Below are positions 4,771-37,643 of a stretch of 39,355 bases of DNA, one piece after another. Numbering within the stretch: the stretch's first letter is position 1; each line of letters opens with the position of its first letter. Under the pieces are notes generated by a model. The model searched no databases and was not told the DNA's origin. It saw only the letters and a list, made by a program, of their open reading frames with translations. The translations under genes and the position numbers were made by a program. Source of the stretch: Escherichia phage JB01; sequence record MW074885; one strand, given 5' to 3'.

Positions 4771-5199
4771 ATGAGCACTGACTTAGAGAGACTTGAAAGA
4801 TTCTTGAAGATTGAGGGCGATTGCTGGCTGTTCACTGGTGGCAGGGCACATGCCTACGGAGTCTTCTGGATGGACGGTAAGAATCACAAGGCACATAGGG
4901 CGGCCTTCGAACTTTATAATGGGAGGAAACCTAATGGTGTTATATTACACTCTTGTGATAATCCTTTGTGCTGCAATCCCGCTCATCTATCTGAGGGAAC
5001 TCAGCTTGATAATATGGTGGACATGGTTAGAAAGGGACGCTCGTTAAAGGGTACGAAGAATCCCGCATGCAAGTTTACCGATGAGGATGTCAAGTTCATT
5101 CAGGAGTCTACCATGAAGGTCAAAGATTTAGCCACTCTATTCGGAGTGACGCGCCAAACAATAACCAAATGGAGGAAACATCATGTTCAAACTGATTAA
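4771..5199 (+). CDS. HNH homing endonuclease (HNH_3-type) with C-terminal HTH-like tail
   Basis: 142 aa; motifs GDCWLFTGG, AHRAAF, HSCDNPLCCNPAHL, EGTQ; sits between phi4.3 and gene 4.3. Confidence 0.8.
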   Translation: MSTDLERLERFLKIEGDCWLFTGGRAHAYGVFWMDGKNHKAHRAAFELYNGRKPNGVILHSCDNPLCCNPAHLSEGTQLDNMVDMVRKGRSLKGTKNPACKFTDEDVKFIQESTMKVKDLATLFGVTRQTITKWRKHHVQTD

Positions 5200-8298: not shown

Positions 8299-8317
8299 TT
8301 CTATAGGAGAAATTATT

Positions 8318-8614
8318 ATGGCTATCACTAAGAAATTTAAAGTGTCCTTTGACGTTACCCTTAAGCTGGACAGCGATACCGAAGAACTGATGCGCGAAAG
8401 GATTTTGGACTTAGCTCATCGTGCTGGTGCTGGTGAGGAGATTGCTCCTATGGACCGAGAGTTGCTCGTTCAGGCTCTGACAAGTGGCCCAGACGGTGCT
8501 GCTGCCTTCGCTGTGCGCCAAGGTCTCCGTAATGCTATCAAAGAGATGTTCGAAGAGATGGGTGATTCCTCACTGTTCAAAGCGTCTCCTGCAACGGTAC
8601 GGGAGGTGTTCTGA
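8318..8614 (+). CDS. 5.5: gp5.5 (H-NS binding protein)
   Basis: 99 aa from ATG at 8318 with taggaga SD; gene 5.3 absent between 5 and 5.5. Confidence 0.88.
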   Translation: MAITKKFKVSFDVTLKLDSDTEELMRERILDLAHRAGAGEEIAPMDRELLVQALTSGPDGAAAFAVRQGLRNAIKEMFEEMGDSSLFKASPATVREVF

Positions 8615-8981: not shown

Positions 8982-9870
8982 CCTTAAACAATTCTACGAG
9001 TTACGTGAAGGCTGCAACGACAAAGGTATCCTTGTGATGGATGGTGACTGGCTGGTCTTCCAAGCGATGAGTGCCGCTGAGTTTGATGCCTCATGGGAGG
9101 AAGAGATTTGGCACCGCTGCTGTGACCACGCTAAGGCCCGTCAGATTCTTGAGGATTCCATCAAGTCCTATGAGACCCGCAAGAAGGCTTGGATAGGTGC
9201 TCCGATTGTCCTTGCGTTCACCGATAGCGTTAACTGGCGTAAAGAACTGGTTGACCCGAACTACAAGGCTAACCGTAAGGCAACCAAGAAACCTGTGGGT
9301 TACTTTGAGTTCCTTGAGGCTCTCTTTGAGCGCGAAGAGTTCTATTGCATCCGTGAGCCTATGCTTGAGGGTGATGACGTTATGGGAGTTATTGCCTCCA
9401 ATCCGTCTGCATTCGGTGCGCGTAAGGCTGTAATTATCTCGTGCGATAAGGACTTTAAGACCATCCCTAACTGTGACTTCCTGTGGTGCACCACTGGTAA
9501 CATCCTTACTCAGACAGAAGAGTCCGCTGACTGGTGGCACCTCTTCCAGACAATCAAGGGTGACATCACCGATGGTTACTCAGGGATTGCTGGGTGGGGA
9601 GATACTGCCGAGGAGTTCTTGAATAACCCGTTCATAACCGAGCCTAAAACGTCTGTGCTTAAGTCTGGCAAGAACAAAGGCCAAGAGGTTACTAAATGGG
9701 TTAAACGAGACCCTGAGCCTCATGAGACGCTTTGGGACTGCATTAAGTCCATTGGCGCTAAGGCTGGTATGACCGAAGAGGATATTATCAAGCAGGGCCA
9801 GATGGCTCGCATCCTTCGGTTCAACGAGTACAACTTTATTGACAAGGAGATTTACCTGTGGAGACCGTAG
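8968..9870 (+). CDS. 6: gp6 5'-3' exonuclease
   Basis: 300 aa, same length as T7 gp6. Confidence 0.95.
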   Translation: MALLDLKQFYELREGCNDKGILVMDGDWLVFQAMSAAEFDASWEEEIWHRCCDHAKARQILEDSIKSYETRKKAWIGAPIVLAFTDSVNWRKELVDPNYKANRKATKKPVGYFEFLEALFEREEFYCIREPMLEGDDVMGVIASNPSAFGARKAVIISCDKDFKTIPNCDFLWCTTGNILTQTEESADWWHLFQTIKGDITDGYSGIAGWGDTAEEFLNNPFITEPKTSVLKSGKNKGQEVTKWVKRDPEPHETLWDCIKSIGAKAGMTEEDIIKQGQMARILRFNEYNFIDKEIYLWRP

Positions 9871-9971
9871 CGTATATTGGCATTGGTATTTGTGTCCTAG
9901 GAATTGGCCTCATTGCGTGGGGCCTTTGGGACTTAGCCAGAATAATCAAGGCGTTACACGACACTAAGTGA
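9858..9971 (+). CDS. 6.3: gp6.3-like small hydrophobic protein
   Basis: GTG start overlapping the gene 6 end; 37 aa ETVAYIGIGICVLGIGLIAWGLW... Confidence 0.6.
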   Translation: METVAYIGIGICVLGIGLIAWGLWDLARIIKALHDTK

Positions 9972-10040
9972 TAAACTCAAGGTCCCTAAATTAATACGAC
10001 TCACTATAGGGAGATAGGGGCCTTTATGATTATTACTTTA
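9972..10040 (+). promoter_or_regulatory. RNase III-type hairpin spanning phi6.5 (R6.5-like)
   Basis: actcaaggtccc...ggggcctttatgat arms bracket the promoter. Confidence 0.45.
9992..10014 (+). promoter_or_regulatory. phage RNAP promoter phi6.5 (class III consensus)
   Basis: taatacgactcactatagggaga exact consensus. Confidence 0.9.
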
Positions 10041-10068
10041 AGATTTAACTCTAAGAGGAATCTTTATC

Positions 10069-10323
10069 ATGTTAACACCTATTAACCAATTACTTAAGAA
10101 CCCTAACGATATTCCAGATGTACCTCGTGCAACCGCTGAGTATCTACAGGTTCGATTCAACTATGCGTACCTCGAAGCGTCTGGTCATATAGGACTTATG
10201 CGTGCTAATGGTTGTAGTGAAGCTCACATATTGGGTTTCATTCAGGGCCTACAGTATGCCTCTAACGTCATTGACGAGATTGAGTTACGCAAGGAACAAC
10301 TAAGAGAAGATGGGGAGGATTGA
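10069..10323 (+). CDS. 6.5: gp6.5 hypothetical protein
   Basis: 84 aa; position and sequence as T7 gp6.5. Confidence 0.85.
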
Positions 10324-10997: not shown

Positions 10998-11300
10998 ATG
11001 GGTAAGAAAATTAAGAAGGCCGTGAAGAAAGTCACTAAGTCCGTTAAGAAAGTCGTTAAGGAAGTGACTCGTCCGGTTAAACAGATTGCTGGTGGTCTGG
11101 CTGGTGGTGCTGGTGAAGCACAGGTGGTGGAAGTACCACAAGCTGCCGCAACTCCTGCTGCACAGATTGTTGACGTACCTGAGAAAGAGGTTTCCACTGA
11201 GGACGAAGCACAGACCGAAAGCGGACGTAAGAAAGCTCGTGCTGGCGGTAAGAAGTCCTTGAGTGTGGCTCGTAGCTCCGGTGGCGGCATCAACATTTAA
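10998..11300 (+). CDS. 7.3: gp7.3 tail assembly/ejection protein
   Basis: 100 aa, Lys-rich N-terminus MGKKIKKAVKKVTKSVKK; gene 7.7 absent before gene 8. Confidence 0.88.
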   Translation: MGKKIKKAVKKVTKSVKKVVKEVTRPVKQIAGGLAGGAGEAQVVEVPQAAATPAAQIVDVPEKEVSTEDEAQTESGRKKARAGGKKSLSVARSSGGGINI

Positions 11301-11314
11301 ACAGGAGGTGACAC

Positions 11315-12925
11315 ATGGCTGAGAAGCGTACAGGTCTAGCCGAGGAAGGCGCAAAGTCGGTCTATGAGCGATTAAAGAACGACCGCGCTCCTTATGAGAC
11401 TCGTGCTCAAAACTGCGCTCAGTACACCATTCCGTCCCTCTTCCCTAAGGACTCCGATAACTCATCCACAGACTACACGACTCCGTGGCAAGCTGTGGGT
11501 GCTCGCGGTCTCAATAACTTGGCCTCTAAGCTCATGCTGGCTCTCTTCCCGATGCAAACGTGGATGAAACTGACCATCTCTGAGTATGAGGCTAAACAGT
11601 TACTGAATGACCCCGATGGACTCGCTAAGGTCGATGAGGGCCTCTCGATGGTAGAGCGTATCATCATGAACTACATTGAGTCTAACAGTTACCGAGTGAC
11701 TCTCTTTGAGGCTCTCAAGCAGTTAGTCGTAGCGGGTAACGTCCTGCTGTACCTACCGGAACCAGAAGGGTCAAACTATAATCCCATGAAGCTGTATCGA
11801 TTGTCTTCTTATGTGGTCCAACGAGACGCATTCGGCAACGTTCTGCAAATGGTGACTCGTGACCAGATAGCTTTTGGCGCTCTCCCTGAGGACATCCGTA
11901 AGGCTGTAGAAGGTCAAGGTGGTGAGAAGAAAGCCGATGAGACCATCGACGTGTACACTCACATCTATCTGGATGAGGACTCAGGCGAATACCTCCGGTA
12001 CGAAGAGGTCGAGGGTATGGAAGTTCAAGGCTCCGATGGGTCTTACCCCAAAGAGGCTTGCCCGTACATCCCGATTCGAATGGTTCGTCTGGATGGTGAA
12101 TCCTACGGTCGTTCGTACATTGAGGAATACTTAGGTGACTTACGGTCCCTTGAGAATCTCCAAGAGGCTATCGTCAAGATGTCCATGATTAGCTCTAAGG
12201 TTATCGGCTTAGTGAATCCTGCTGGCATCACCCAGCCACGCCGACTGACCAAAGCTCAGACTGGTGACTTCGTTACTGGTCGTCCAGAAGACATCTCGTT
12301 CCTCCAACTGGAGAAGCAAGCAGACTTTACTGTAGCTAAAGCCGTAAGTGACGCTATCGAGGCTCGCCTTTCGTTTGCCTTTATGTTGAACTCTGCGGTT
12401 CAGCGCACAGGTGAGCGTGTGACCGCCGAAGAGATTCGGTACGTTGCGTCAGAACTAGAAGATACTTTGGGTGGTGTCTACTCCATCCTTTCTCAAGAAT
12501 TACAATTGCCTCTGGTACGAGTGCTCTTGAAGCAACTACAAGCCACGCAACAGATTCCTGAGTTACCTAAGGAAGCCGTAGAGCCAACTATTAGCACAGG
12601 TCTGGAAGCAATCGGTCGTGGTCAAGACCTTGATAAGCTGGAGCGTTGTGTCGCTGCGTGGGCTGCACTGGCTCCTATGCGTGATGACCCTGACATCAAC
12701 CTTGCGATGATTAAGCTGCGAATTGCTAACGCTATCGGTATTGACACTTCTGGTATTCTACTCACCGAAGAACAGAAGCAACAGAAGATGGCCCAACAGT
12801 CTATGCAAATGGGTATGGATAATGGTGCTGCTGCGCTGGCTCAAGGTATGGCTGCACAAGCTACAGCTTCACCTGAGGCTATGGCTGCTGCCGCTGATTC
12901 CGTAGGTTTACAGCCGGGCATTTAA
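11315..12925 (+). CDS. 8: gp8 portal (head-tail connector) protein
   Basis: 536 aa, same length as the T7 portal. Confidence 0.97.
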   Translation: MAEKRTGLAEEGAKSVYERLKNDRAPYETRAQNCAQYTIPSLFPKDSDNSSTDYTTPWQAVGARGLNNLASKLMLALFPMQTWMKLTISEYEAKQLLNDPDGLAKVDEGLSMVERIIMNYIESNSYRVTLFEALKQLVVAGNVLLYLPEPEGSNYNPMKLYRLSSYVVQRDAFGNVLQMVTRDQIAFGALPEDIRKAVEGQGGEKKADETIDVYTHIYLDEDSGEYLRYEEVEGMEVQGSDGSYPKEACPYIPIRMVRLDGESYGRSYIEEYLGDLRSLENLQEAIVKMSMISSKVIGLVNPAGITQPRRLTKAQTGDFVTGRPEDISFLQLEKQADFTVAKAVSDAIEARLSFAFMLNSAVQRTGERVTAEEIRYVASELEDTLGGVYSILSQELQLPLVRVLLKQLQATQQIPELPKEAVEPTISTGLEAIGRGQDLDKLERCVAAWAALAPMRDDPDINLAMIKLRIANAIGIDTSGILLTEEQKQQKMAQQSMQMGMDNGAAALAQGMAAQATASPEAMAAAADSVGLQPGI

Positions 12926-19403: not shown

Positions 19404-21647
19404 ATGAGTAAAATTGAATCTGCCCTTCAAGCGGCACAACCGGGACTCTCTCGGTTACGTAGTGGCGCTGGTGGTATGGGCTATCGTGCGGCAACCACTC
19501 AGGCTGAACAGCCACGGTCAAGCCTATTGGACACCATTGGTCGGTTCGCTAAGGCTGGTGCTGATTTGTATGCCGCTAAGGAACAGAGAGCACGAGACCT
19601 AGCTGACGAACGTTCTAACGAGATTATCCGTAAGCTGACTCCTGAGCAACGCCGAGAGGCTCTCAACAACGGGACCCTTCTGTATCAGGATGACCCATAC
19701 GCTATGGAAGCACTCCGAGTCAAGACTGGTCGCAACGCTGCGTACCTTGTGGACGATGACGTTATGCAGAAGGTCAAAGAGGGTGTCTTCCGTACTCGTG
19801 AGGAGATGGAACAGTATCGCCATAGTCGTCTTCAAGAGGGCGCTAAGGCATACGCTGAGCAGTTCGGTATTGACCCTGAGGACGTTGACTATCAGCGTGG
19901 TTTCAATGGGGACATTACCGAGCGTAACATCTCGCTGTATGGCGCACACGATAACTTCTTGAGCCAGCAAGCTCAGAAGGGTGCCATCATGAACAGCCGA
20001 GTGGAACTCAACGGTGTCCTTCAAGACCCTGATATGCTGCGTCGTCCAGACTCTGCTGACTTCTTTGAGAAGTACATCGACAACGGTCTGGTTACTGGGG
20101 CAATCCCATCGGACGCTCAAGCCACACAGCTTATAAGCCAAGCGTTCAGTGACGCTTCTAGCCGTGCTGGTGGTGCTGACTTCCTGATGCGAGTCGGTGA
20201 CAAGAAGGTAACACTTAACGGAGCCACTACGACTTACCGAGAGTTGATGGGTGAGGAACAGTGGAATGCTCTAATGGTGACAGCACAACGCTCTCAGTTT
20301 GAGAATGACGCTAAGCTGAACGAGCAGTATCGCTTGAAGATTAACTCTGCGATGAACCAAGAGGACCCTCGTACTGCGTGGGAGATGCTTCAAGGTATCA
20401 AGGCTGAACTCGATAAGATTCAACCTGATGAGCAGATGACACCACAACGTGAGTGGCTAATCTCTGCACAGGAGCAAGTTCAGAACCAGATGAACGCATG
20501 GACGAAAGCTCAGGCCAAGGATCTGGATGATTCCATGAAGTCTATGAACAAACTTGAAGTAATCGACAAGCAGTTCCAGAAGCGAATCAACGGTGAGTGG
20601 GTCTCAACGGACTTTAAGGATATGCCAGTCAACGAGAACACTGGTGAGTTCAAGCATAGCGATATGGTTAACTACGCCAATAAGAAGCTCGCTGAGATTG
20701 ACCGAATGGACATCCAAGATAGTGCCAAGGACATGATGAAGTTAAAATACCTTCAAGCGGACTCTAAGGACGGTGCCTTCCGTACAGCAATCGGGACTAT
20801 GGTGACTGACGCTAGTCAAGAGTGGTCTGCCGCTGTGATTAACGGTAAGATACCAGAACGGACCCCAGCTTTGGATGCTCTGCGTAGAATCCGTAATGCC
20901 GACCCCCAGTTGATTGCTGCGCTATACCCAGACCAAGCTGAGCTATTCCTGACGATGGACATGATGGACAAGCAGGGTATTGACCCTCAGGTTATTCTTG
21001 ATGCCGACAGACTGACTGTTAAGCGGTCCAAAGAGCAACGCTTTGAGGACGATAAAGCATTCGAGTCTGCATTGAATGCATCTAAGGCTCCTGAGATTGC
21101 CCGTATGCCAGCGTCACTTCGCGAATCTGCACGTAAGATTTATGACTCAGTTAAGTATCGCTCAGGGAACGAAAGCATGGCTATGGAGCAGATGACCAAG
21201 TTCCTTCAGGAATCTACCTACACGTTCACTGGTGATGATGTTGATGGAGATACCATTGGTGTGATTCCGAAGAACATGATGCAAGTCAACTCTGACCCGA
21301 AATCATGGGAGCAAGGTCGGGATATTCTGGAGGAAGCACGTAAGGGAATCATTGCGAGCAACCAGTGGATAACCAACAAGCAACTGACCATGTATTCTCA
21401 AGGTGATTCCATTTACCTCATGGATACCACTGGTCAAGTCCGCGTCCGTTATGATAAAGAGTTACTCTCGAAGGTCTGGAGTGAGAACCAGAAGAAACTC
21501 GAAGAGAAGGCTCGCGAGAAGGCTCTGGCTGATGCTAACAAGCGAGCACCTATAGTTGCCGCTACCAAGGCCCGTGAAGCTGGTGCTAAACGAGTCCGAG
21601 AGAAACGTAAACAGACTCCGAAGTTCATCTATGGACGCAAGGAGTAA
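19404..21647 (+). CDS. 15: gp15 internal virion protein B
   Basis: 747 aa as T7 gp15. Confidence 0.95.
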   Translation: MSKIESALQAAQPGLSRLRSGAGGMGYRAATTQAEQPRSSLLDTIGRFAKAGADLYAAKEQRARDLADERSNEIIRKLTPEQRREALNNGTLLYQDDPYAMEALRVKTGRNAAYLVDDDVMQKVKEGVFRTREEMEQYRHSRLQEGAKAYAEQFGIDPEDVDYQRGFNGDITERNISLYGAHDNFLSQQAQKGAIMNSRVELNGVLQDPDMLRRPDSADFFEKYIDNGLVTGAIPSDAQATQLISQAFSDASSRAGGADFLMRVGDKKVTLNGATTTYRELMGEEQWNALMVTAQRSQFENDAKLNEQYRLKINSAMNQEDPRTAWEMLQGIKAELDKIQPDEQMTPQREWLISAQEQVQNQMNAWTKAQAKDLDDSMKSMNKLEVIDKQFQKRINGEWVSTDFKDMPVNENTGEFKHSDMVNYANKKLAEIDRMDIQDSAKDMMKLKYLQADSKDGAFRTAIGTMVTDASQEWSAAVINGKIPERTPALDALRRIRNADPQLIAALYPDQAELFLTMDMMDKQGIDPQVILDADRLTVKRSKEQRFEDDKAFESALNASKAPEIARMPASLRESARKIYDSVKYRSGNESMAMEQMTKFLQESTYTFTGDDVDGDTIGVIPKNMMQVNSDPKSWEQGRDILEEARKGIIASNQWITNKQLTMYSQGDSIYLMDTTGQVRVRYDKELLSKVWSENQKKLEEKAREKALADANKRAPIVAATKAREAGAKRVREKRKQTPKFIYGRKE

Positions 21648-24600: not shown

Positions 24601-25630
24601 ACAGGAACTGGCTGCTCGCTCTCCGTGGACTAAGCTACTGAACGGAACCACTAACTACCTTCTGGATGCCGCGCGTCAAGGTATGCTTGGGGACGTTATT
24701 AGTGCTACCTTATCAGGTAAGACTACCCGCTGGGAGAAAGAAGGATTCCTTCGGGGTGCCTCCGTAACTCCTGAGCAGATGGCTGGTATCAAGTCTCTCA
24801 TCAAGGAACACATGGTACGTGGTGAGGACGGGAAGTTTACCGTTAAGGACAAGCAAGCGTTCTCTATGGACCCACGGGCTATGGACTTATGGCGACTGGC
24901 TGACAAGGTAGCTGATGAGGCAATGCTGCGTCCGCATAAGGTGTCCTTACAGGATTCCCATGCGTTCGGAGCATTAGGTAAGATGGTGATGCAGTTTAAG
25001 TCTTTCACTATTAAATCCCTTAACTCTAAGTTCCTGAGAACCTTCTACGATGGTTACAAGAACAACCGAGCGATTGACGCTGCGCTGACTGGTATCATCT
25101 CGATGGGTCTCGCTGGTGGTTACTACGCTATGGCTGCACACGTCAAAGCATATGGGATGCCTAAGGAGAAACGTAAGGAGTACTTGGAGAGAGCACTCGA
25201 CCCAACCATGATTGCCCACGCTTCGTTGTCTCGTAGTTCTCAATTGGGTGCTCCTTTGGCTATGGCTGACCTAGTTGGCGGTGTCTTAGGGTTCGAGTCC
25301 TCCAAGATGGCTCGCTCTACGATTCTACCTAAGGACACCACGAAGGAACGAGACCCCAACAAACCGTACACCTCTAGAGAGGTAATGGGAGATATTGGTT
25401 CAAACCTGCTGGAACAGATGCCTTCTGCTGGCTTTGTGGCTAACGTAGGGGCTACCTTAATGAATGCTGCTGGCGTGGTCAACTCACCTAACAAAGCAAC
25501 CGAGCAGGACTTCATGACTGGCTTGATGAACTCTACCAAGGAGTTAGTACCTAACGACCCTCTTACTCAACAACTTGTGATTAAGATTTATGAGGCCAAT
25601 GGTGTTAACTTGAGGGAACGTAGGAAATAA
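21674..25630 (+). CDS. 16: gp16 internal virion protein D with N-terminal lytic transglycosylase domain
   Basis: 1318 aa; transglycosylase-type motif AWTESRF near the N-terminus. Confidence 0.96.
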   Translation: MDKYDKNVPSEYDGLFQKAADANGVSYDLLRKVAWTESRFKPTAKSKTGPLGMMQFTKATAKALGLRVTDGPDDDRLNHELAINAAAKHLAGLVGKFDGDELKAALAYNQGEGRLGNPQLEAYSKGDFASISEEGRNYMRNLLDVAKSPMAGQLETFGGITPKGKGIPAEVGLAGIGHKQKVTQELPESTSFDVKGIEQEAPAKPFAKDFWETHGETLDEYNNRSTFFGFKNAAEAELSNSVAGMAFRAGRLDNGFDVFKDTITPTRWNSHIWTPEELEKIRTEVKNPAYINVVTGGSPENLDDLIKLANDNFENDSRAAEAGLGAKLSAGIIGAGVDPLSYVPMVGVTGKGFKLINKALVVGAESAALNVASEGLRTSVAGGDADYAGAALGGFLFGAGMSAISDAVAAGLKRSKPEAEFDNEFIGPMMRMEARETARNANSADLSRMNTKNMKFEGEHNGVPYEDLPTERGAVVLHDGSVISASNPINPKTLQEFSEVDPEKAARGIKLAGFTEIGLKTLGSDDADIRRVAIDLVRSPTGMQSGASGKFGATASDIHERLRGTDQRTYNDLYKAMSDAMKDPEFSTGGAKMSREETRYTIYRRAALAIERPELQKALTPSERIVMDIIKRHFDTKRELMENPAIFGNTKAVSIFPESSHKGTYVPHVYDRHAKAMMIQRYGAEGLQEGIARSWMNSYVSRPEVKARVDEMLKEVHGVKEVTPEMVEKYAMDKAYGISHSDQFTNSSIIEENIEGLVGIENNSFLEARNLFDSDLSITMPDGQQFSVNDLRDFDMFRIMPAYDRRVNGDIAIMGSTGKTTKELKDEILALKAKAEGDGKKTGEVHALMDTVKILTGRARRNQDTVWETSLRSINDLGFFAKNAYMGAQNLTEIAGMIATGNVRALGHGIPILRDTLYKSKPVSAKELKELHASLFGKEVDQLIRPKRADIVQRLREATDTGPTVANIVGTLKYSTQELAARSPWTKLLNGTTNYLLDAARQGMLGDVISATLSGKTTRWEKEGFLRGASVTPEQMAGIKSLIKEHMVRGEDGKFTVKDKQAFSMDPRAMDLWRLADKVADEAMLRPHKVSLQDSHAFGALGKMVMQFKSFTIKSLNSKFLRTFYDGYKNNRAIDAALTGIISMGLAGGYYAMAAHVKAYGMPKEKRKEYLERALDPTMIAHASLSRSSQLGAPLAMADLVGGVLGFESSKMARSTILPKDTTKERDPNKPYTSREVMGDIGSNLLEQMPSAGFVANVGATLMNAAGVVNSPNKATEQDFMTGLMNSTKELVPNDPLTQQLVIKIYEANGVNLRERRK

Positions 25631-25650
25631 TACGACTCACTATAGGGAGA
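25628..25650 (+). promoter_or_regulatory. phage RNAP promoter phi17 (class III)
   Basis: taatacgactcactatagggaga overlapping the gene 16 stop; transcript 5' hairpin gggaga...tctccc. Confidence 0.9.
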
Positions 25651-25702: not shown

Positions 25703-27367
25703 ATGGCTAACGTAATTAAAACCGTTTTGACTTACCAGTTAGATGGCTCCAATCGTGATTTTAATATCCCGTTTGAGTATCTAGCCCGTAAGTTCGTAGT
25801 GGTAACTCTTATTGGTGTAGACCGCAAGGTCCTTACGATTAATACAGACTACCGTTTTGCTACGCGTACTACCATCTCACTAACCAAGGCTTGGGGGCCA
25901 GCGGATGGCTACACTACCATCGAGTTACGTCGAGTAACCTCCACGACCGACCGATTGGTTGACTTTACGGACGGCTCAATCCTCCGTGCGTATGACCTTA
26001 ACGTAGCTCAGATTCAAACGATGCACGTAGCGGAAGAGGCCCGTGACCTCACTGCGGATACTATCGGTGTCAATAATGATGGTCACTTGGATGCTCGTGG
26101 TCGTCGAATTGTGAACCTAGCGAACGCCGTTGATGACCGTGACGCTGTTCCGTTTGGTCAACTTAAGACCATGAACCAGAACTCGTGGCAAGCACGTAAT
26201 GAGGCCCTACAGTTCCGTAATGAGGCTGAGACTTTCAGAAATCAAGCGGAGGGCTTTAAGAACGAGTCTGGTACCAACGCTGCTAATACGAAGCAGTGGC
26301 GTGATGAGACCCAAGGGTTCCGTGATGGAGCCGAGCAGTTAAAGAATACTGCTGGTCAATACGCTACGTCTGCTGGGAACTCTGCTACTGCTGCACACCA
26401 ATCTGAGGTAAACGCTGAGAACTCCGCTACAGCCTCTGCCAACTCAGCACATTTAGCGGAACAACAGGCAGACCGAGCGGAACGTGAAGCAGACAAGCTG
26501 GGAAACTGGAACGCCCTTGCTGGTACTGTAGAGAGCGTTCAGGGTGATAGTGTATTCTGGAAAGGAGGAGGCTATTGGGTTGGAGGTCCCGCATACAGAC
26601 TCCCAACGAACCACGCATTTAGGTTCCGTATGGGTATTTGGGAAGAAGGCGACTTCCTTAAGTCTGACTTCGCTATGGACCGACCGGACGGTATAGGGTT
26701 CATAGGGTATGCAGCGGACAAGACTGGACAGCATCGTCACCAGATTCGACTTAATCAGTTAACAATAGCTGGCGGTGTGGTAGAGTCAGATGCTGATGGT
26801 CTCATAGCTCACGCTTTCGCTGACCAGTACACCACTAAAGCTCCTTTCTTCCAACAGATTCATGTACAATCTACAAGCTCATATCACCCAATAATAAAGC
26901 AACGAACTTACCAATCTGGACGGTGGGCAGGATGCTGGTCTATCGGTACACTGCTGACTGGAGCGCATCCGTCATTCCACATACATATGAAGGACGAAGG
27001 GATAAGTGATAAACTTTGGACGTTCAATACCAATGGAGACTTCCGCGCCCCTGGGGAGATTTGGGCCGATGGCGGACGTGTGGCTGTACGGAATGGCTCT
27101 TTTGACCCTGAGGGTAGAGTTTGGGGTACTGCGTATGATACCGGATACCTAGATGACTGGATTCGGAGACACTGGCCCGGCGATGTTTATTGGGGCCCTC
27201 AACGCTGGGTGCAAAAGTGGGGAGGTTATGCAGACATAGTTGCTGGTGCTGGGGAAGCCTGCTCTGGTGTAACCGCTGATGGTAGCGGTAACGTTGCGGG
27301 TGCATTCTTCCGAGCGCTTTGGCTTGGATATCACAACGGTACTAAACGATTAGTTGCTTCCCAATAA
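25703..27367 (+). CDS. 17: gp17 tail fiber protein (T7-like N-terminal half, divergent C-terminal receptor-binding region)
   Basis: 554 aa; first ~270 residues T7-like; remainder Gly/Trp-rich and unlike the T7 tip as I recall it. Confidence 0.93.
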   Translation: MANVIKTVLTYQLDGSNRDFNIPFEYLARKFVVVTLIGVDRKVLTINTDYRFATRTTISLTKAWGPADGYTTIELRRVTSTTDRLVDFTDGSILRAYDLNVAQIQTMHVAEEARDLTADTIGVNNDGHLDARGRRIVNLANAVDDRDAVPFGQLKTMNQNSWQARNEALQFRNEAETFRNQAEGFKNESGTNAANTKQWRDETQGFRDGAEQLKNTAGQYATSAGNSATAAHQSEVNAENSATASANSAHLAEQQADRAEREADKLGNWNALAGTVESVQGDSVFWKGGGYWVGGPAYRLPTNHAFRFRMGIWEEGDFLKSDFAMDRPDGIGFIGYAADKTGQHRHQIRLNQLTIAGGVVESDADGLIAHAFADQYTTKAPFFQQIHVQSTSSYHPIIKQRTYQSGRWAGCWSIGTLLTGAHPSFHIHMKDEGISDKLWTFNTNGDFRAPGEIWADGGRVAVRNGSFDPEGRVWGTAYDTGYLDDWIRRHWPGDVYWGPQRWVQKWGGYADIVAGAGEACSGVTADGSGNVAGAFFRALWLGYHNGTKRLVASQ

Positions 27368-27376
27368 GGAGACATT

Positions 27377-27760
27377 ATGCGTAAATTTACTAACTGGACA
27401 TACGAAGTAACTACCGCTTACGGCGGTATCGCCACTTATGACGTGACTGCATCTTGTGGGACCGATTGGTATGAACTCATGGTTGAACTTGAGGACCGAC
27501 CTGAGAGATGGGTAGTCGGTATAGATAAGAACGGATTCATCTCATGGTTCTCCGATGGGACTGTTAACGGCACTTATGCGCCACCTGAGGGCGGTCTGGT
27601 GATTGTCACCGATGAGTTCGACCCTGAGTGGCAACGTGTTAAACTTTGGAACGGGGAGTCCTTCGAGGATATCCCTGAGCCACCTAAACGTACACCTGAG
27701 GAAATCCAAGCAGACCTTGAGGCTCTGATGGTTGAACTTCGTGAGCTTAGGGGGAAATAA
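27377..27760 (+). CDS. hypothetical protein between tail fiber and holin (candidate fiber assembly/accessory protein)
   Basis: 127-aa ORF with strong SD aaggaga 4 nt upstream; acidic; no T7 counterpart at this locus. Confidence 0.7.
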   Translation: MRKFTNWTYEVTTAYGGIATYDVTASCGTDWYELMVELEDRPERWVVGIDKNGFISWFSDGTVNGTYAPPEGGLVIVTDEFDPEWQRVKLWNGESFEDIPEPPKRTPEEIQADLEALMVELRELRGK

Positions 27761-27774
27761 TGGAGGTAAACTAA

Positions 27775-27978
27775 ATGTTGTCTTTAGATTTCAACAACGA
27801 AATCGTAAAGGCGGCTCCGATTGTAGGGACGGGTGTGGCTGATGGTGCAGCCCGTCTCTTCTTTGGATTGTCGCTAAACGAATGGTTCTATGTTGCTGCT
27901 ATCGCCTACACAGTAGTTCAGATTGGTGCTAAGGTAGTCGATAAAGTAATTGATTGGAAGAAAGCAAATAAGGAGTAG
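27775..27978 (+). CDS. 17.5: gp17.5 holin
   Basis: 67 aa MLSLDFNNEIVKAAPIVGTGVADGAARLFFGLSL... with hydrophobic core and charged C-terminus. Confidence 0.9.
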   Translation: MLSLDFNNEIVKAAPIVGTGVADGAARLFFGLSLNEWFYVAAIAYTVVQIGAKVVDKVIDWKKANKE

Positions 27979-30597: not shown

Positions 30598-31041
30598 ATG
30601 ATAAGCAAGAAGAAGTATGTGATTGATAAGGAGACTGGCTGCTGGAACTTTAAGGGATGCAGGACGAAGACTGGATATGGTCGCATTCGTGTAAACGGAG
30701 TCCATTGGATGGCCCACAGGTATTCCCTGAGTTGTCATCTAGGCAGACCGATAGCTGACGGAATGGTTGTGATGCACCTGTGTGATAATCCTTCATGTGT
30801 TAACCCTGAGCACCTTAAGGAAGGGACTCAGAAGGAGAACATAGAAGACTGCATCTCAAAAGGTCGCGCAACTAAGGCCACAGGTAAACGTGATGCGTCT
30901 AAGAGAGACCCTAGCGAGGAACGTAAGGCTATAGTGGTTCGTAGATACCATAAAGGCTGGACTGCAACGTCCATAGCGAGATACCATAAGCTCTCTGTGG
31001 CGTGGGTCAAGAGGGTCATTGAGGAGTACCTAAGTGATTGA
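30598..31041 (+). CDS. HNH homing endonuclease (HNH_3-type) with C-terminal HTH-like tail
   Basis: 147 aa; motifs GCWNFKGC, GYGRIRVNG, AHRYS, HLCDNPSCVNPEHL, EGTQ; between gene 19 and phiOR. Confidence 0.8.
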   Translation: MISKKKYVIDKETGCWNFKGCRTKTGYGRIRVNGVHWMAHRYSLSCHLGRPIADGMVVMHLCDNPSCVNPEHLKEGTQKENIEDCISKGRATKATGKRDASKRDPSEERKAIVVRRYHKGWTATSIARYHKLSVAWVKRVIEEYLSD

Positions 31042-31092: not shown

Positions 31093-31115
31093 TAATTCGA
31101 CTCACTATAGGGAGA
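31093..31115 (+). promoter_or_regulatory. phage RNAP promoter phiOR-like
   Basis: taattcgactcactatagggaga, one mismatch to consensus, upstream of gene 19.5. Confidence 0.75.
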
Positions 31116-31596: not shown

Positions 31597-31766
31597 TCTC
31601 ACAGTGTACGGACCCAAAGTTCCCCCATAGGGGTACCTAAAGCCCAGCCAATCACCTAAAGTTACCTTTCGGTTGACCTTGAGGGTCCCTAAGGGTTGGG
31701 GTTTACCTTTGAGTGGGACTTTGGGTTTACCTTTGAGTGTTACCTTGAGTGTCTCTATGTGTCCCT
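31597..31766. repeat. direct terminal repeat region (single collapsed copy at the genome-end junction)
   Basis: begins tctcacagtgtacgga and ends gtgtccct, matching the T7 terminal-repeat boundaries as I recall them; contains internal direct repeat gggtttacctttgagtg x2. Confidence 0.5.
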
Positions 31767-32520: not shown

Positions 32521-32545
32521 TTAACTACTAAAGGAATCACACACA

Positions 32546-32830
32546 ATGCGCTTAAGTAAAGAGACAGCAATAGCTATGCGTCAAGCAATCAAATCCAGAG
32601 CAGCTCACAACGTGGGAGGTCTTGGGGATGTTGTACGGACGTATAAAGCTAAAGGTCTAACATTCCGCCGCTTTATGTGGGACTGTTTCCACGCTGTAGG
32701 CTTTAACGAGACAACCCGAATAATCGCTGAGCATAACACGGTGACAGTGATTGGAGGGCATATAACAGATGTGAACGATGCACACATTGAGACAATGCTC
32801 AAGGTTGCACTTAAAGACTTGAAATATTAG
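32546..32830 (+). CDS. hypothetical early protein upstream of ocr (no T7 counterpart)
   Basis: 94-aa ORF, ATG at 32546; first gene after A1-A3; flanked by duplicated processing-site element; no family recognised. Confidence 0.7.
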   Translation: MRLSKETAIAMRQAIKSRAAHNVGGLGDVVRTYKAKGLTFRRFMWDCFHAVGFNETTRIIAEHNTVTVIGGHITDVNDAHIETMLKVALKDLKY

Positions 32831-32876
32831 TGATAAACTCAAGGGTATCGCAAGGTGCCCTTCATGATTATCATTG
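32826..32876 (+). promoter_or_regulatory. RNase III-type processing site, copy 2 (R0.3-like)
   Basis: gtgataaactcaagggtatcgcaaggtgcccttcatgattatcat; near-identical to copy 1. Confidence 0.5.
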
Positions 32877-32903: not shown

Positions 32904-33254
32904 ATGGCTATGTCTAACATGACTTACAACAACGTTTTCGACCACGCTTACGAAATGCTGAAAGAAAACATCCGTTATGATGACATCCGCGACACTGATG
33001 ACCTGCATGATGCTATTCACATGGCTGCCGATAATGCAGTTCCGCACTACTACGCTGACATCTTTAGCGTAATGGCAAGCGAGGGCATTGACCTTGAGTT
33101 CGAAGACTCTGGTCTTATGCCGGACACCAAGGACGTAATCCGCATCCTGCAAGCTCGCATCTATGAGCAACTCACGATTGACCTCTGGGAAGACGCTGAG
33201 GACTTACTGAACGAGTACCTTGAGGAAGTCGAGGAAGAGGAAGAGGAATTATAA
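32904..33254 (+). CDS. ocr: gp0.3 Ocr DNA-mimic anti-restriction protein
   Basis: 116 aa [27 protein letters not shown]..., highly acidic with [10 protein letters not shown] tail. Confidence 0.93.
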
Positions 33255-33256
33255 TC

Positions 33257-33397
33257 ATGGTCAAGTATGGTCTAACAAAAGAGATGATTCAGACGTACCG
33301 CGTAGCGATGGCTTATGGTGCTTCTTTCGGGTACTGCATGGCACAATTAGCACAGACATATCGAGCACGCAAAGCGATGTACGGTAATAGTAAGTGA
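33257..33397 (+). CDS. gp0.4-like small early protein (possible FtsZ inhibitor homolog)
   Basis: 46-aa ORF directly after ocr; weak resemblance to T7 gp0.4 (..GYCMAQLAQTY..); below the ORF-track cutoff. Confidence 0.5.
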   Translation: MVKYGLTKEMIQTYRVAMAYGASFGYCMAQLAQTYRARKAMYGNSK

Positions 33398-33445
33398 TAG
33401 ACTCAAGGTCGCTCCTAGCGAGTGGCCTTTATGATTATCATTCTA
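33398..33445 (+). promoter_or_regulatory. RNase III-type processing hairpin (R0.5-like)
   Basis: actcaaggtcgctcctagcgagtggcctttatgat: inverted repeat cgctc/gagcg with the shared flanks. Confidence 0.45.
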
Positions 33446-33459
33446 TGAGGATTAAACGC

Positions 33460-33630
33460 ATGACGACTGGAATCATTATGGCAACCTTTGCAGTAATCGT
33501 AGCTATGGGATGGCGTAGCGCTGCGTTGGAGCGCTCAAAGTTCCTTAAGCAACGTGATGCACTGCTCGCTAAGTTGGACGCTGAGGGGCGCGGTAAGGAA
33601 GCTCTGGAGGCAATAAAGTGCTATCGCTAA
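33460..33630 (+). CDS. 0.5: gp0.5-like small membrane protein
   Basis: 56 aa from ATG at 33460 (MTTGIIMATFAVIVAMGW...); ORF-track start at 33394 lies inside the hairpin. Confidence 0.65.
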   Translation: MTTGIIMATFAVIVAMGWRSAALERSKFLKQRDALLAKLDAEGRGKEALEAIKCYR

Positions 33631-33815
33631 TTATCATCACTGGTTACGCTCTAATCCTATACGTGTTCCTTAGAGACTTCCGCAAGGGTATAAAGGTCCA
33701 CAAAGCAACGCTAAGTTACTTTAAATACGGATTCCTACCACGGTTTACGGTACGTGAGCACAACGGGCGCTTTAAGGCGAACAAAGTAGGCATCTTTTAC
33801 GTAGCAACTAATTAA
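33618..33815 (+). CDS. hypothetical small membrane protein at the gene 0.6 position
   Basis: 65 aa, GTG start with ggagg SD; N-terminal TM segment [17 protein letters not shown]; not like T7 0.6 as I recall it. Confidence 0.5.
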
Positions 33816-33837
33816 TCACACTTGGAGAATACATAAA

Positions 33838-34917
33838 GTGAACATCACCGACATCATGAACGCTATCGACGCAATCAAAGCACTGCCAATCTGTGAACTC
33901 GACAAGCGTCAAGGTATGCTTATCGACTTACTGGTCGAGATGGTCAATAGTGAAACATGCGATGGCGAGTTAACCGAACTAAATCAGGCACTTGAATATC
34001 AAGATTGGTGGACTACCTTGAAGTTCCTAACGGCTGACGCAGGGTTCGAGATGCTCGGTAATGGTCACTTCTCTGCTGCTTACAGTCACCCGCTGCTACC
34101 TAACAGAGTGATTAAGGTTGGCTTTAAGAAAGAGGACTCAGGCGCTGCGTATACTGCATTCTGCCGCATGTATCAAGGTCGTGCCGGTATTCCTAACATC
34201 TACGATGTACAGCGCCACGCTGGATGTTATACGGTGGTACTCGATGCACTGAATGATTGTGAGCGTTACGACAACGATGAGCATTATAAGTATGCTGAGA
34301 TTGCAAGCGACATCATTGACTTCAAATCAGATGTGCACGATGGGTTGACTGGGTGGGATGGTGAGTTCGTCGAGACTTGCAAACTAATCCGCAAGTTCTT
34401 TGAGGGTATCGCTTCATTCGACATGCACAGCGGTAACATTATGTTCTCAAATGGGGACGTACCGTACATTACCGACCCAGTGTCATTCTCGCAGAAGAAA
34501 GACGGCGGTGCATTCAGTATTGACCCTGAGGAACTCATCAAGGAAGTCGAGGAAGTCGCACGACAGAAAGAAATTGACCGCGCTAAGGAACGTAAAGCAC
34601 GCCACGAGTGGCGCTTAGAGGCACGAAGAATGAAACGCCGGAACCGCAAGGCGCGTAAAGCTCACAAAGCAAAGCACGAGAGAATGCTTGCTGCGTGGCG
34701 CTGGGATGAACGTCAAGAACGACGTAACCATGAGGTAGCTGTAGATGTGTTAGGAAGGACTAATAACGCTATGCTCTGGGTCAACATGTTCGTTAAGGAC
34801 TTTAAGGCGCTTGAGGAACGAATTGCAGCACACTGGCGCTGCGCTGACAGGATGGCTATTGCTAACGGTCATGCCCTCAACATCGATAAGCAACTTGACG
34901 CAATGCTAATGGGCTGA
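33838..34917 (+). CDS. 0.7: gp0.7 serine/threonine protein kinase / host transcription shutoff
   Basis: 359 aa, GTG start; [26 protein letters not shown]..., as T7 gp0.7. Confidence 0.95.
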
Positions 34918-34991: not shown

Positions 34992-37643
34992 ATGAACACG
35001 ATTAACATCGCTAAGAACGACTTCTCTGACATCGAACTTGCTGCTATCCCGTTCAACACTCTGGCTGACCATTACGGTGAGCGTTTAGCTCGCGAGCAGT
35101 TGGCCCTTGAGCATGAGTCTTACGAGATGGGTGAAGCACGCTTCCGCAAGCTGTTTGAGCGTCAACTTAAAGCTGGTGAGGTTGCGGATAACGCTGCCGC
35201 CAAGCCTCTCATCACTACCCTTCTCCCTAAGATGATTGCACGCATCAACGATTGGTTTGAGGAAGTGAAAGCTAAGCGCGGCAAACGCCCGACAGCCTTC
35301 CAGTTCCTGCAAGAAATTAAGCCGGAAGCTGTAGCGTACATCACCATTAAGACCACTCTGGCTTGCCTCACTAGCGTAGACAATACAACAGTTCAGGCTG
35401 TAGCGAGTGCAATCGGTCGGGCCATTGAGGATGAGGCGCGCTTCGGTCGTATCCGTGACCTTGAAGCTAAGCACTTCAAGAAAAACGTTGAGGAACAACT
35501 CAACAAGCGCGTAGGCCACGTCTACAAGAAAGCGTTTATGCAGGTTGTCGAAGCTGACATGCTCTCTAAGGGTCTACTTGGTGGCGAGGCATGGTCTTCG
35601 TGGCATAAGGAAGACTCCATTCACGTTGGGGTGCGCTGCATTGAGATGCTCATTGAGTCAACCGGAATGGTTAACTTACACCGCCAAAACGCTGGCGTAG
35701 TAGGGCAAGACTCTGAGACTATCGAACTCGCACCGGAATACGCTGAGGCTATCGCAACCCGTGCAGGAGCACTGGCTGGTATCTCTCCGATGTTCCAACC
35801 TTGCGTAGTTCCTCCTAAGCCGTGGACTGGTATTACTGGTGGCGGATATTGGGCCAACGGTCGCCGTCCTCTGGCGCTGGTACGTACCCACAGCAAGAAA
35901 GCACTGATGCGCTACGAAGACGTTTACATGCCTGAGGTGTACAAAGCGATTAACATTGCGCAAAACACCGCATGGAAAATCAACAAGAAAGTCCTAGCGG
36001 TCGCCAACGTAATCACCAAGTGGAAGCACTGCCCAGTAGAGGACATCCCAGCGATTGAGCGTGAAGAACTCCCGATGAAACCGGAAGACATCGACACGAA
36101 TCCTGAGGCGCTCACCGCTTGGAAGCGTGCTGCCGCTGCTGTGTACCGCAAGGACAAGGCTCGCAAGTCTCGCCGTATCAGCCTTGAGTTCATGCTTGAG
36201 CAAGTCAACAAGTTCGCTAACCATAAGGCCATCTGGTTCCCTTACAACATGGACTGGCGCGGTCGTGTTTACGCTGTGTCAATGTTCAACCCGCAAGGTA
36301 ACGACATGACCAAGGGTCTACTGACACTGGCGAAAGGTAAGCCAATCGGTAAGGAAGGTTACTACTGGTTGAAGATTCACGGTGCAAACTGTGCGGGTGT
36401 CGATAAGGTTCCGTTCCCTGAGCGCATCAAGTTCATTGAGGAAAACCACGAGAACATCATGGCTTGCGCCAAGTCTCCACTGGAGAACACTTGGTGGGCT
36501 GAGCAGGACTCTCCATTCTGCTTCCTAGCGTTCTGCTTTGAATACGCTGGGGTACAGCACCACGGATTAAGCTACAACTGCTCTCTTCCGCTGGCTTTCG
36601 ATGGGTCTTGCTCTGGTATTCAGCACTTCTCCGCGATGCTACTCGATGAGGTAGGTGGTCGTGCGGTTAACCTGCTGCCTAGTTCAACAGTTCAGGACAT
36701 CTACGGGATTGTCGCTAAGAAAGTAAATGTGATTCTGCAAGAAGACGTAATCAACGGGACCGACAACGAAGTAGTTACCGTGACCGATGAGAACACTGGC
36801 GAAATCTCTGAGAAAGTCAAGCTGGGCACTAAGGCATTGGCTGGTCAGTGGTTGGCTTACGGTGTTACTCGTAGCGTGACTAAGCGTTCAGTCATGACGC
36901 TGGCTTACGGGTCCAAAGAGTTCGGCTTCCGTCAACAAGTGCTGGAAGATACCATTCAGCCAGCTATTGATTCCGGTAAAGGTCTGATGTTCACTCAACC
37001 GAATCAGGCTGCTGGATACATGGCGAAACTGATTTGGGAAGCTGTGAGCGTCACGGTAGTAGCTGCGGTTGAAGCAATGAACTGGCTTAAGTCTGCTGCT
37101 AAGCTGCTTGCTGCTGAGGTCAAAGATAAGAAGACTGGAGAGATTCTACGCAAGCGTTGCGCTGTACATTGGGTTACTCCTGATGGGTTCCCTGTGTGGC
37201 AGGAATACAAGAAGCCAATCCAGACTCGCTTGAACCTGATGTTCCTCGGTCAGTTCCGCTTACAGCCGACCATTAACACCAACAAAGATAGCGAGATTGA
37301 CGCGCACAAGCAGGAGTCCGGTATAGCTCCTAACTTTGTACACAGCCAAGACGGTAGCCACCTGCGTAAGACTGTAGTGTGGGCACACGAGAAGTACGGA
37401 ATCGAATCTTTTGCACTGATTCACGACTCCTTCGGGACCATTCCGGCTGACGCTGCTAACCTGTTCAAAGCGGTGCGAGAAACTATGGTTGACACCTATG
37501 AGTCTTGTGATGTACTGGCTGACTTCTATGAACAGTTCGCAGACCAGTTGCATGAGTCTCAATTGGATAAAATGCCAGCACTTCCGGCTAAGGGTAACTT
37601 GAATCTCCAAGACATCCTTAAGTCAGACTTCGCGTTCGCCTAA
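34992..37643 (+). CDS. 1: gp1 single-subunit DNA-dependent RNA polymerase
   Basis: 883 aa, near-identical to T7 RNAP as I recall it; motifs DGSCSGIQHFSA and HDSFGT; ends FAFA. Confidence 0.98.
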   Translation: MNTINIAKNDFSDIELAAIPFNTLADHYGERLAREQLALEHESYEMGEARFRKLFERQLKAGEVADNAAAKPLITTLLPKMIARINDWFEEVKAKRGKRPTAFQFLQEIKPEAVAYITIKTTLACLTSVDNTTVQAVASAIGRAIEDEARFGRIRDLEAKHFKKNVEEQLNKRVGHVYKKAFMQVVEADMLSKGLLGGEAWSSWHKEDSIHVGVRCIEMLIESTGMVNLHRQNAGVVGQDSETIELAPEYAEAIATRAGALAGISPMFQPCVVPPKPWTGITGGGYWANGRRPLALVRTHSKKALMRYEDVYMPEVYKAINIAQNTAWKINKKVLAVANVITKWKHCPVEDIPAIEREELPMKPEDIDTNPEALTAWKRAAAAVYRKDKARKSRRISLEFMLEQVNKFANHKAIWFPYNMDWRGRVYAVSMFNPQGNDMTKGLLTLAKGKPIGKEGYYWLKIHGANCAGVDKVPFPERIKFIEENHENIMACAKSPLENTWWAEQDSPFCFLAFCFEYAGVQHHGLSYNCSLPLAFDGSCSGIQHFSAMLLDEVGGRAVNLLPSSTVQDIYGIVAKKVNVILQEDVINGTDNEVVTVTDENTGEISEKVKLGTKALAGQWLAYGVTRSVTKRSVMTLAYGSKEFGFRQQVLEDTIQPAIDSGKGLMFTQPNQAAGYMAKLIWEAVSVTVVAAVEAMNWLKSAAKLLAAEVKDKKTGEILRKRCAVHWVTPDGFPVWQEYKKPIQTRLNLMFLGQFRLQPTINTNKDSEIDAHKQESGIAPNFVHSQDGSHLRKTVVWAHEKYGIESFALIHDSFGTIPADAANLFKAVRETMVDTYESCDVLADFYEQFADQLHESQLDKMPALPAKGNLNLQDILKSDFAFA

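Follow-up and report, generated by a model that had tools for sequence, protein, structure and literature searches.

A putative short-form, Mu-type tail fibre assembly protein encoded between the tail fibre and holin genes of the T7-like Escherichia phage JB01

Separate tail fibre assembly (Tfa) chaperones encoded downstream of fibre genes are textbook knowledge; the Tfa protein of lambda can substitute for gp38 of T4 (as described in older literature), and one such separate chaperone is known in a T7-like phage. According to the two-domain model of Tfa proteins, a variable N-terminal domain binds the fibre tip and a helical C-terminal domain trimerises (PMC9608196). The T7-like case is Bas103, where a separate Mu-like Tfa is encoded downstream of the fibre gene and a hexameric fibre-Tfa complex has been predicted (PMC11990801). 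The same publication (PMC11990801) does not discuss a protein of phage Bas104 that is a 98%-identical counterpart of the product described here. Our literature searches found no study of the short Tfa family to which these two proteins belong; in GenBank, the label "tail fiber assembly protein" is already attached to its members from ZCEA1, GP-5 and K19PH14C4P1.

Here we analyse an ORF located between the tail fibre and holin genes of Escherichia phage JB01, using a 39,355-nt stretch of DNA (sequence record MW074885; hereafter, the window). We conclude that its product is very probably a shortened, intermolecular chaperone of the Mu U (Tfa) type that assists tail-fibre assembly. The novelty is modest: a family homologous to Mu-type Tfa proteins via the N-terminal domain only, with an invariant terminal helix of its own and no conserved C-terminal domain. 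A further new point is the joint transfer of this family and the last ~70 residues of the fibre between phages of the T7-like and T4-like groups.

Locus layout, transcription and conservation

The window holds the whole genome of a T7-type podophage in circularly permuted form. This genome is collinear with T7 at 83-96% DNA identity, except for a few replaced stretches, and uses exact T7 promoter sequences. A perfect (23/23) match to the consensus of T7-type late promoters, equivalent to phi17, is located at 25628..25650 (+); gene 17, the ORF and the genes further downstream are transcribed from it. Gene 17 (25703..27367, +; stop codon TAA at 27365-27367) encodes the 554-aa tail fibre (Pfam Phage_T7_tail, E=3e-74). 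Its stop codon is overlapped by a Shine-Dalgarno sequence, AAGGAGA (27366..27372, +), which is followed by four nucleotides (catt) and the ATG (27377) of the 127-aa ORF (27377..27760, +; TAA at 27758-27760). The ORF is separated by 9 nt from the stop of gene 17 and by 14 nt from the start (27775) of the holin gene 17.5 (Pfam Phage_holin_2_2, E=3e-34). The ORF, its Shine-Dalgarno sequence and its distances to both neighbouring genes are thus confirmed as described in the initial annotation, and the short spacer at this site in T7 is indeed only 58 nt long (from the end of gene 17 at 36285 to the start of gene 17.5 at 36344).

T7-type promoters are found neither between the phi17 equivalent and position 31093 nor inside the ORF, and terminator-like sites between the same promoter and 31093 do not exceed the background level; thus, the ORF is transcribed late, together with gene 17. 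As its ribosome-binding site overlaps the stop codon of that gene, its translation is probably coupled to that of gene 17. A search for Rfam families in or near the ORF found none.

Several additional features of the genome were noted elsewhere in the window. The segment 31184-31766 matches the right end of T7 (39366-39937), and the segment 31597-32526 matches its left end (1-907); their 170-nt overlap (31597-31766) looks like a collapsed single direct terminal repeat, which would place the physical genome ends inside the window. Two homing-endonuclease-like ORFs of the HNH_3 type, both with a C-terminal helix-turn-helix, are located at 4771-5199 (+), after gene 4 (142 aa, Pfam E=3e-12), and at 30598-31041 (+), directly after gene 19 (147 aa, E=9e-9); T7 has no such HNH_3 gene at either position. 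The T7 endonuclease genes 2.8, 3.8 (most of it) and 7.7 are, in turn, without a counterpart at window positions 1995/2016, 2954/2989 and 11309/11315, where T7 stretches 9860-10278, 11213-11586 and 19843-20240 are skipped in the alignment. This combination of two HNH_3 ORFs not seen in T7 and missing T7 endonuclease genes suggests a turnover of homing endonucleases. Further stretches without a DNA match to T7 (820-1011, 8300-8575, 32527-32835 and 33248-33838) fall around gene 1.8, in the gene 5.3 region and in the early region between genes 0.3 and 0.7, and include a 94-aa ORF (32546-32830) without a Pfam family.

Length by itself cannot prove that the ORF is a gene, given the out-of-frame ORFs of up to 110 aa in its vicinity; what identifies it as a real gene is its conservation. 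A homologue was detected by tblastn in 64 of 50,697 phage records, and an exhaustive HMMER search of 1.84 billion representative proteins yielded ~20 clusters (113-136 aa), only 30-55% identical to one another. With conserved homologues in this number of records and clusters, a chance ORF was rejected. A word-index protein search with the window protein returned one near-identical cluster only, the family as such being visible in the exhaustive representative search. An alignment of 23 sequences contains ten invariant columns (W31, Y32, W57, P69, R105, D113, L114, L117, E120 and L121). The closest relatives (98% protein identity), found in Escherichia phages C5, Bas104 and 04922B and in Serratia phage UFV01, are all labelled "hypothetical protein", and a dN/dS comparison among the close relatives comprises only about 10 differences.

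In some 60 T7-like phages from several genera, the slot between the fibre and holin genes holds a homologue of 113-136 aa. The order gp16, gp17, ORF, holin, gp18 is observed in every examined T7-like locus with the gp17 side on record (N30, Koku, Pila, D226, pEp_SNUABM_04, GlastosBack, phiKp_31, GP-5, C5, WW2 and the P0018 metagenomic contig). These loci span Teseptimavirus, Teetrevirus and Berlinvirus, as well as Erwinia, Klebsiella, Yersinia and Serratia hosts and metagenomic contigs. A stop-overlapping TAAGGAG is present in 10 of the 11 other T7-like loci listed (the exception being phiKp_31, with an 18-nt gap), and the distance from the fibre gene to the homologue is 8-18 nt in the 12 other tabulated loci, including T4-like Cronus (17 nt in the P0018 contig). 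Outside the T7-like phages, only the T4-like Erwinia phages Cronus and IT22 appear among the matches listed; the Cronus homologue (40% identity, E=1e-26) is encoded immediately downstream of the distal long-tail-fibre gene and ahead of the holin gene, i.e., in the gp38 position. A scan of IMG/VR with the family alignment yielded only 6 loci, mostly from the same isolates.

Some of the individual matches deserve a comment. The 171-kb partial record of "Escherichia phage ST2" (OM982647.1; Kagunavirus in its taxonomy line) contains a match amid genes for a class II holin, the small terminase and a primase/helicase and, given these purely T7-like surroundings, looks like a chimeric or mixed assembly. 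The homologue in Klebsiella phage GlastosBack (L014, 2408-2887) is annotated as a 159-aa protein overlapping the fibre gene by 83 nt. The ATG at 2501, preceded by a TAAGGAG site and located 10 nt after the fibre stop, yields a family-typical 128 aa, so that the annotated start is probably wrong. In addition, six large proteins of 351-1602 aa (P0020, P0022 and P0024-P0027) match residues ~40-105 of the ORF product in 2-9 repeated stretches each (E=1e-7 to 7e-4); the W-x-x-G-rich core of the product may resemble a repeat motif of unrelated large proteins.

Kinship with Mu-type Tfa proteins and the short form

The ORF product (127 aa, 14.6 kDa) is acidic, as described in the initial annotation (pI 4.28; 25 D+E vs. 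12 K+R), with no hydrophobic segment (maximum 19-residue hydropathy of 0.48) and with neither a signal peptide nor a membrane segment. Searches with the window protein produced no match among PDB sequences or in NCBIfam and no Pfam family (only a sub-threshold chance match to ACAS_N), and the sole result of a profile search against PDB sequences was a nanobody at noise level (E=0.37). A single-chain AlphaFold2 (AF2) model built from a 22-sequence alignment has a mean pLDDT of 91.4; a high-confidence helix is predicted at residues 107-125, in agreement with the helix-like C-terminus suggested previously.

The initial annotation had proposed a chaperone for folding or assembly of the fibre tip as a candidate role and structure and profile searches against tail fibre assembly families as a check. 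These searches provided considerable support for that role. The only strong PDB match of the model is the Mu tail fibre assembly protein U (5YVQ chain B), and a Foldseek search of viral models returned two family members followed by myovirus proteins (137-199 aa), among them several with the name tail fiber assembly protein. The N-terminal domain of the ORF product (residues 1-103; 27377..27685, +), which we consider a putative fibre-binding domain, is predicted to adopt the TfaMu fold with a central beta-sheet packed against helices. At the profile level, the window protein itself has a weak match (E=0.01; residues 28-120 on profile positions 33-124) to PHROG 136, "tail fiber assembly protein", which is the family of Mu U/U' (E=6e-81 for Mu U). 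The same profile is matched by 18 of the 23 family members, the best of them (4e-16; positions 8-132 of 178) being P0018, a member from the gp17-holin slot of a T7-like phage.

An additional bridge is provided by the 175-aa protein encoded after gene 17 of Bas103, which passes Pfam Caudo_TAP (E=8e-10). In hhalign comparisons, the family profile aligns with residues 33-139 of this Bas103 Tfa (probability 92.8%, E=3.9e-7) and with an alignment of Mu U, U' and the Bas103 protein (E=5e-6; residues 19-94 on Mu U 25-100); Mu U as a single sequence gives no more than E=0.059, the signal emerging with the Bas103 Tfa or the three-sequence alignment. Three independent lines, including the family profiles and the same-locus bridge via Bas103, have thus turned the PHROG hint into a solid assignment, which is carried by the family profile and the predicted structure, the window protein's own match to PHROG 136 being weak. 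The homology of the N-terminal domain to Mu-type Tfa proteins can be considered established.

Two features by which Tfa proteins are recognised are also present: the ORF is a co-oriented gene immediately downstream of the fibre gene, and it bears signs of co-evolution or co-transfer with the C-terminal end of the fibre (see below). The features of gp38 adhesins of the T2/S16 type (tip proteins retained on the fibre), a length of ~250-260 aa and glycine-rich motifs framing hypervariable loops, are not seen in the product, and the reading of the ORF as a T2-type adhesin was rejected on these grounds.

The most prominent deviation from typical Tfa proteins is at the C-terminus. Neither the window protein nor any of the 23 aligned family members matches Pfam Caudo_TAP (PF02413; gathering score of 22.1 bits), even at E<=1; the positive controls, Mu U, Mu U' and the Bas103 Tfa, score 127, 128 and 39.4 bits, respectively. 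The family members cover only positions ~8-135 of the 178-position PHROG 136 profile, and the hhalign alignment with the Bas103 Tfa does not extend beyond residue 139 of 175. The conserved C-terminal helical domain that Mu U has in common with lambda Tfa (PHROG 136 positions ~111-176) dominates the Caudo_TAP model. Since the members stop at profile positions ~132-135, the C-terminal domain thought to drive fibre oligomerisation is missing.

What is found in its place is the strongest motif of the family, a terminal helix with the pattern RTKEDIxADLxxLxxEL (R105-T-K-E-D-I-x-A-D113-L114-x-x-L117-x-x-E120-L121), in which R105, D113, L114, L117, E120 and L121 do not vary among the 23 sequences. 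A coiled-coil-like 4-3-4-3 spacing is seen for the hydrophobic residues I110, L114, L117, L121 and L124. In the hhalign comparison with the Mu alignment, this helix is not aligned at all. Encoded by 27689..27751 (+; residues 105-125), the amphipathic helix is a candidate oligomerisation element, and we infer that it replaces the missing Tfa C-domain.

A different allele class of the same slot is represented by the Bas103 Tfa. It is absent among the tblastn matches listed for the window protein (60 of 64 records) and for the divergent member P0021 (all 50) and, being full length and matching Caudo_TAP, is only distantly related to the short form.

Fibre tip, co-transferred module and alternative readings

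The fibre adjoining the ORF is a chimera, as the initial annotation had also recognised in speaking of a swapped receptor-binding region: gp17 is T7-like in its N-terminal tail-attachment domain and shaft, with 93% identity to the T7 protein over residues 1-288, and has no relationship to it further on. The DNA encoding the swapped distal part (residues ~268-554; 26506..27367, +) has no blastn match to T7 and belongs to a larger block without a T7 match (26506-27780), which begins within the gp17 shaft and includes the first six bases of the holin gene. With these boundaries, the fibre tip and the ORF represent one inserted module. The distal 274 residues of gp17 are ~30% identical to distal long-tail-fibre subunits of many T4-like phages, and the last ~110 aa show 29% identity (E=6e-11) to the C-terminus of the Cronus fibre.

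A finer dissection is provided by a comparison with N30, in which the fibre is 90-100% identical up to residue ~480 (with a breakpoint near residue 480-510) and then 70% and 50% identical, the ORF being 45-50% identical. Across 55 pairs of T7-like phages, the identity of the ORF product correlates most closely with that of the final 70 residues of the fibre (r=0.89; Mantel test, p~2e-4); the coefficient is lower for the N-terminal 150 residues (0.60) and for the middle of the distal part (0.66). All three values are raised by shared ancestry and are supportive rather than a proof. This ranking, together with the N30 breakpoint, points to a functional link of the ORF with the extreme C-terminus of the fibre, and the last ~70 fibre residues would then be the docking site of the ORF product. 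The suggestion of the initial annotation that the ORF may have arrived with the fibre module is well in line with both the non-T7 block and this co-variation.

With respect to the receptor, the gp17 tip is 88% identical to that of Bas104, one of the phages reported to depend on the O16 O-antigen in the BASEL paper (PMC11990801), which makes a glycan receptor plausible for the window fibre. Comparisons of the fibre tip with Mu S and with PDB sequences yielded nothing significant; thus, the docking mode cannot be transferred with confidence from Mu S or from solved structures.

Among other possible interpretations, the one closest to the chaperone assignment, and partly compatible with it, is that the ORF product is mainly structural and stays on the virion fibre tip as a receptor surface or a transient cap. 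The closest structural relative, Mu Tfa U, was crystallised in a stable complex with the fibre (5YVQ), the chaperones of Mu and Ur-lambda are reported to be present in the mature phage and to contribute to host recognition (PMC9608196), and the idea of "chaperone caps" has been put forward for further pairs of fibre and chaperone (PMC10579305; PMC11990801). Nevertheless, T4 gp38 and Pam3 gp25 are absent from virions (PMC9608196), so that retention is no family rule, and the N30 comparison, with most of the distal fibre ~90% identical and the ORF only 45-50% identical, fits a role tied to the fibre C-terminus better than that of a main specificity determinant. On balance, we consider a mainly structural role unlikely. 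That the protein stops ~45 positions short of the end of the Mu U-type profile and has no Caudo_TAP signature, and that a full-length 175-aa Tfa is present in the same slot in Bas103, could also be taken as a sign that the ORF is a decaying, 3'-truncated and non-functional remnant of a full-length Tfa gene. This view is largely refuted by conservation and appears very improbable: a length of 113-136 aa is kept across ~20 clusters that are only 30-55% identical, conservation within the family peaks in the C-terminal helix with its six invariant residues, all of the listed loci have retained a ribosome-binding site, and the short form occurs in T4-like phages as well.

Two further readings would place the ORF outside fibre assembly altogether. 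Its adjacency to the holin gene, in T7-like phages as well as in Cronus, might hint at a lysis-related or accessory factor such as an antiholin or a superinfection exclusion protein. However, this adjacency is explained by the native gene orders (17-17.5 and 37-38-t), the acidic and soluble-looking product has no membrane segment and resembles no lysis protein in Pfam, PHROGs or NCBIfam, and the co-variation observed is with the end of the fibre, the holin being conserved with T7; hardly any weight can be given to such a function. The alternative offered in the initial annotation, a superinfection-related or other adsorption accessory factor, likewise found no support, with no signal peptide, no membrane segment and no resemblance to such proteins. 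A role in single-stranded DNA binding, to which we assign a negligible probability, is suggested by the labels of homologues in HZP2 (MK542821/NC_048164), vB_KpnP-VAC1 (MZ428229), KPP-5 (MW600722) and KpnP_VR4605 (OM103160), and the acidic C-terminus could be seen as being in its favour. Neither an OB-fold nor a gp2.5-like domain is found in the product, no family or fold evidence speaks for this function, and a stretch matching the T7 gene 2.5 region is present elsewhere in the window; the label "ssDNA-binding protein" looks like a propagated misannotation.

Proposed mechanism and comparison with known systems

Under the preferred interpretation of the ORF product as a short-form Tfa chaperone, the following scenario can be envisioned. 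As the sequence of the locus shows, the protein is made late from the phi17 transcript, probably by translation coupled to that of gene 17. Its N-terminal alpha/beta domain may bind the last ~70 residues of nascent gp17, a contact suggested by analogy with the crystal complex of Mu S and U. The C-terminal helix, judging by the heptad pattern and the invariant residues, may self-associate weakly, probably as a trimer, and this association would align the C-termini of three fibre chains, so that the foreign distal domain would trimerise and fold from the tip in the direction of the T7-type shaft. The T7 fibre tip folds without a helper; here, the tip has been swapped for a relative of T4-like distal long-tail-fibre subunits, and the matching chaperone came along as part of one recombination module (26506-27780). 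Afterwards, the chaperone could be either released, as T4 gp38 and Pam3 gp25 are, or kept on the tip, as in Mu.

In its most far-reaching version, to which we attach a low probability, the family would represent a minimal Tfa in which the ~70-residue C-domain is replaced by a single 20-residue coiled-coil helix and which, in addition, is retained as a tip cap and a co-determinant of receptor recognition. If true, these phages would have two-component receptor-binding fibres, with the last ~70 fibre residues plus the cap as the exchangeable unit.

From a practical standpoint, about 60 deposited T7-like genomes carry this ORF, mostly as a "hypothetical protein" and in several cases as an "ssDNA-binding protein"; a proper name for its product would be tail fibre assembly protein, short form. 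T7 and T3 are a favourite chassis for host-range swaps, and our results suggest that the transferable unit for tips of this kind is the distal fibre together with its cognate small chaperone. The latter appears to be matched to the last ~70 fibre residues, and a tip swap without the ORF is expected to result in unfolded fibres. A 127-aa Tfa without the conserved C-domain also offers a tractable system for addressing which part of Tfa nucleates fibre trimerisation.

The closest known relatives of the ORF product are Mu U/U' (TfaMu; 5YVQ chain B; PHROG 136; PF02413), which have 175-176 aa as compared to 127 aa here and a conserved C-terminal helical domain instead of the family-specific single helix. 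Moreover, Mu is a myovirus with fibre S, whereas the protein described here belongs to a podovirus and is partnered with a fibre without detectable similarity to Mu S. The closest system by genomic context is that of Bas103 (EmilieLinder, PQ850602), a sibling Teseptimavirus whose DNA matches 96% of window positions 1-25000 at ~94% identity. The Bas103 Tfa (Gp60; Bas103_0053) occupies the same slot directly after gene 17, and the tips of the two fibres share a weak similarity (32% over 88 aa, E=6e-5). Nevertheless, the Bas103 protein is full length (175 aa) and contains Caudo_TAP, in contrast to the short ORF product without it.

Among the more distant systems, T4 gp38 and lambda Tfa are fibre chaperones of an equivalent functional class. 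With T4 there is a likeness in both gene position and fibre type: the Cronus homologue sits exactly at the position of gene 38, and the window fibre tip resembles distal long-tail-fibre subunits of T4-like phages. Lambda Tfa has no detectable similarity to the N-terminal domain of the ORF product and shares with the Mu family only the C-terminal domain, which is absent here. Gp25 of cyanophage Pam3, which forms a 3:3 complex with fibre gp24, grips the tip with an N-terminal beta-rich domain and trimerises via C-terminal helices (PMC9608196), a likeness to our proposed arrangement that is by description only. Its C-domain is, however, a multi-helix one similar to other Tfa C-domains, unlike the single short helix of the ORF product. 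Finally, intramolecular chaperones at the C-termini of fibres or tailspikes, for example those of the T7-like Bas102 fibre and of the L-shaped fibre of T5, perform the same task, trimer folding from the C-terminal end, and represent another way of achieving it among phages of this group (PMC11990801); these chaperone domains are fused to the fibre and cleaved off, whereas the ORF product is a separate polypeptide.
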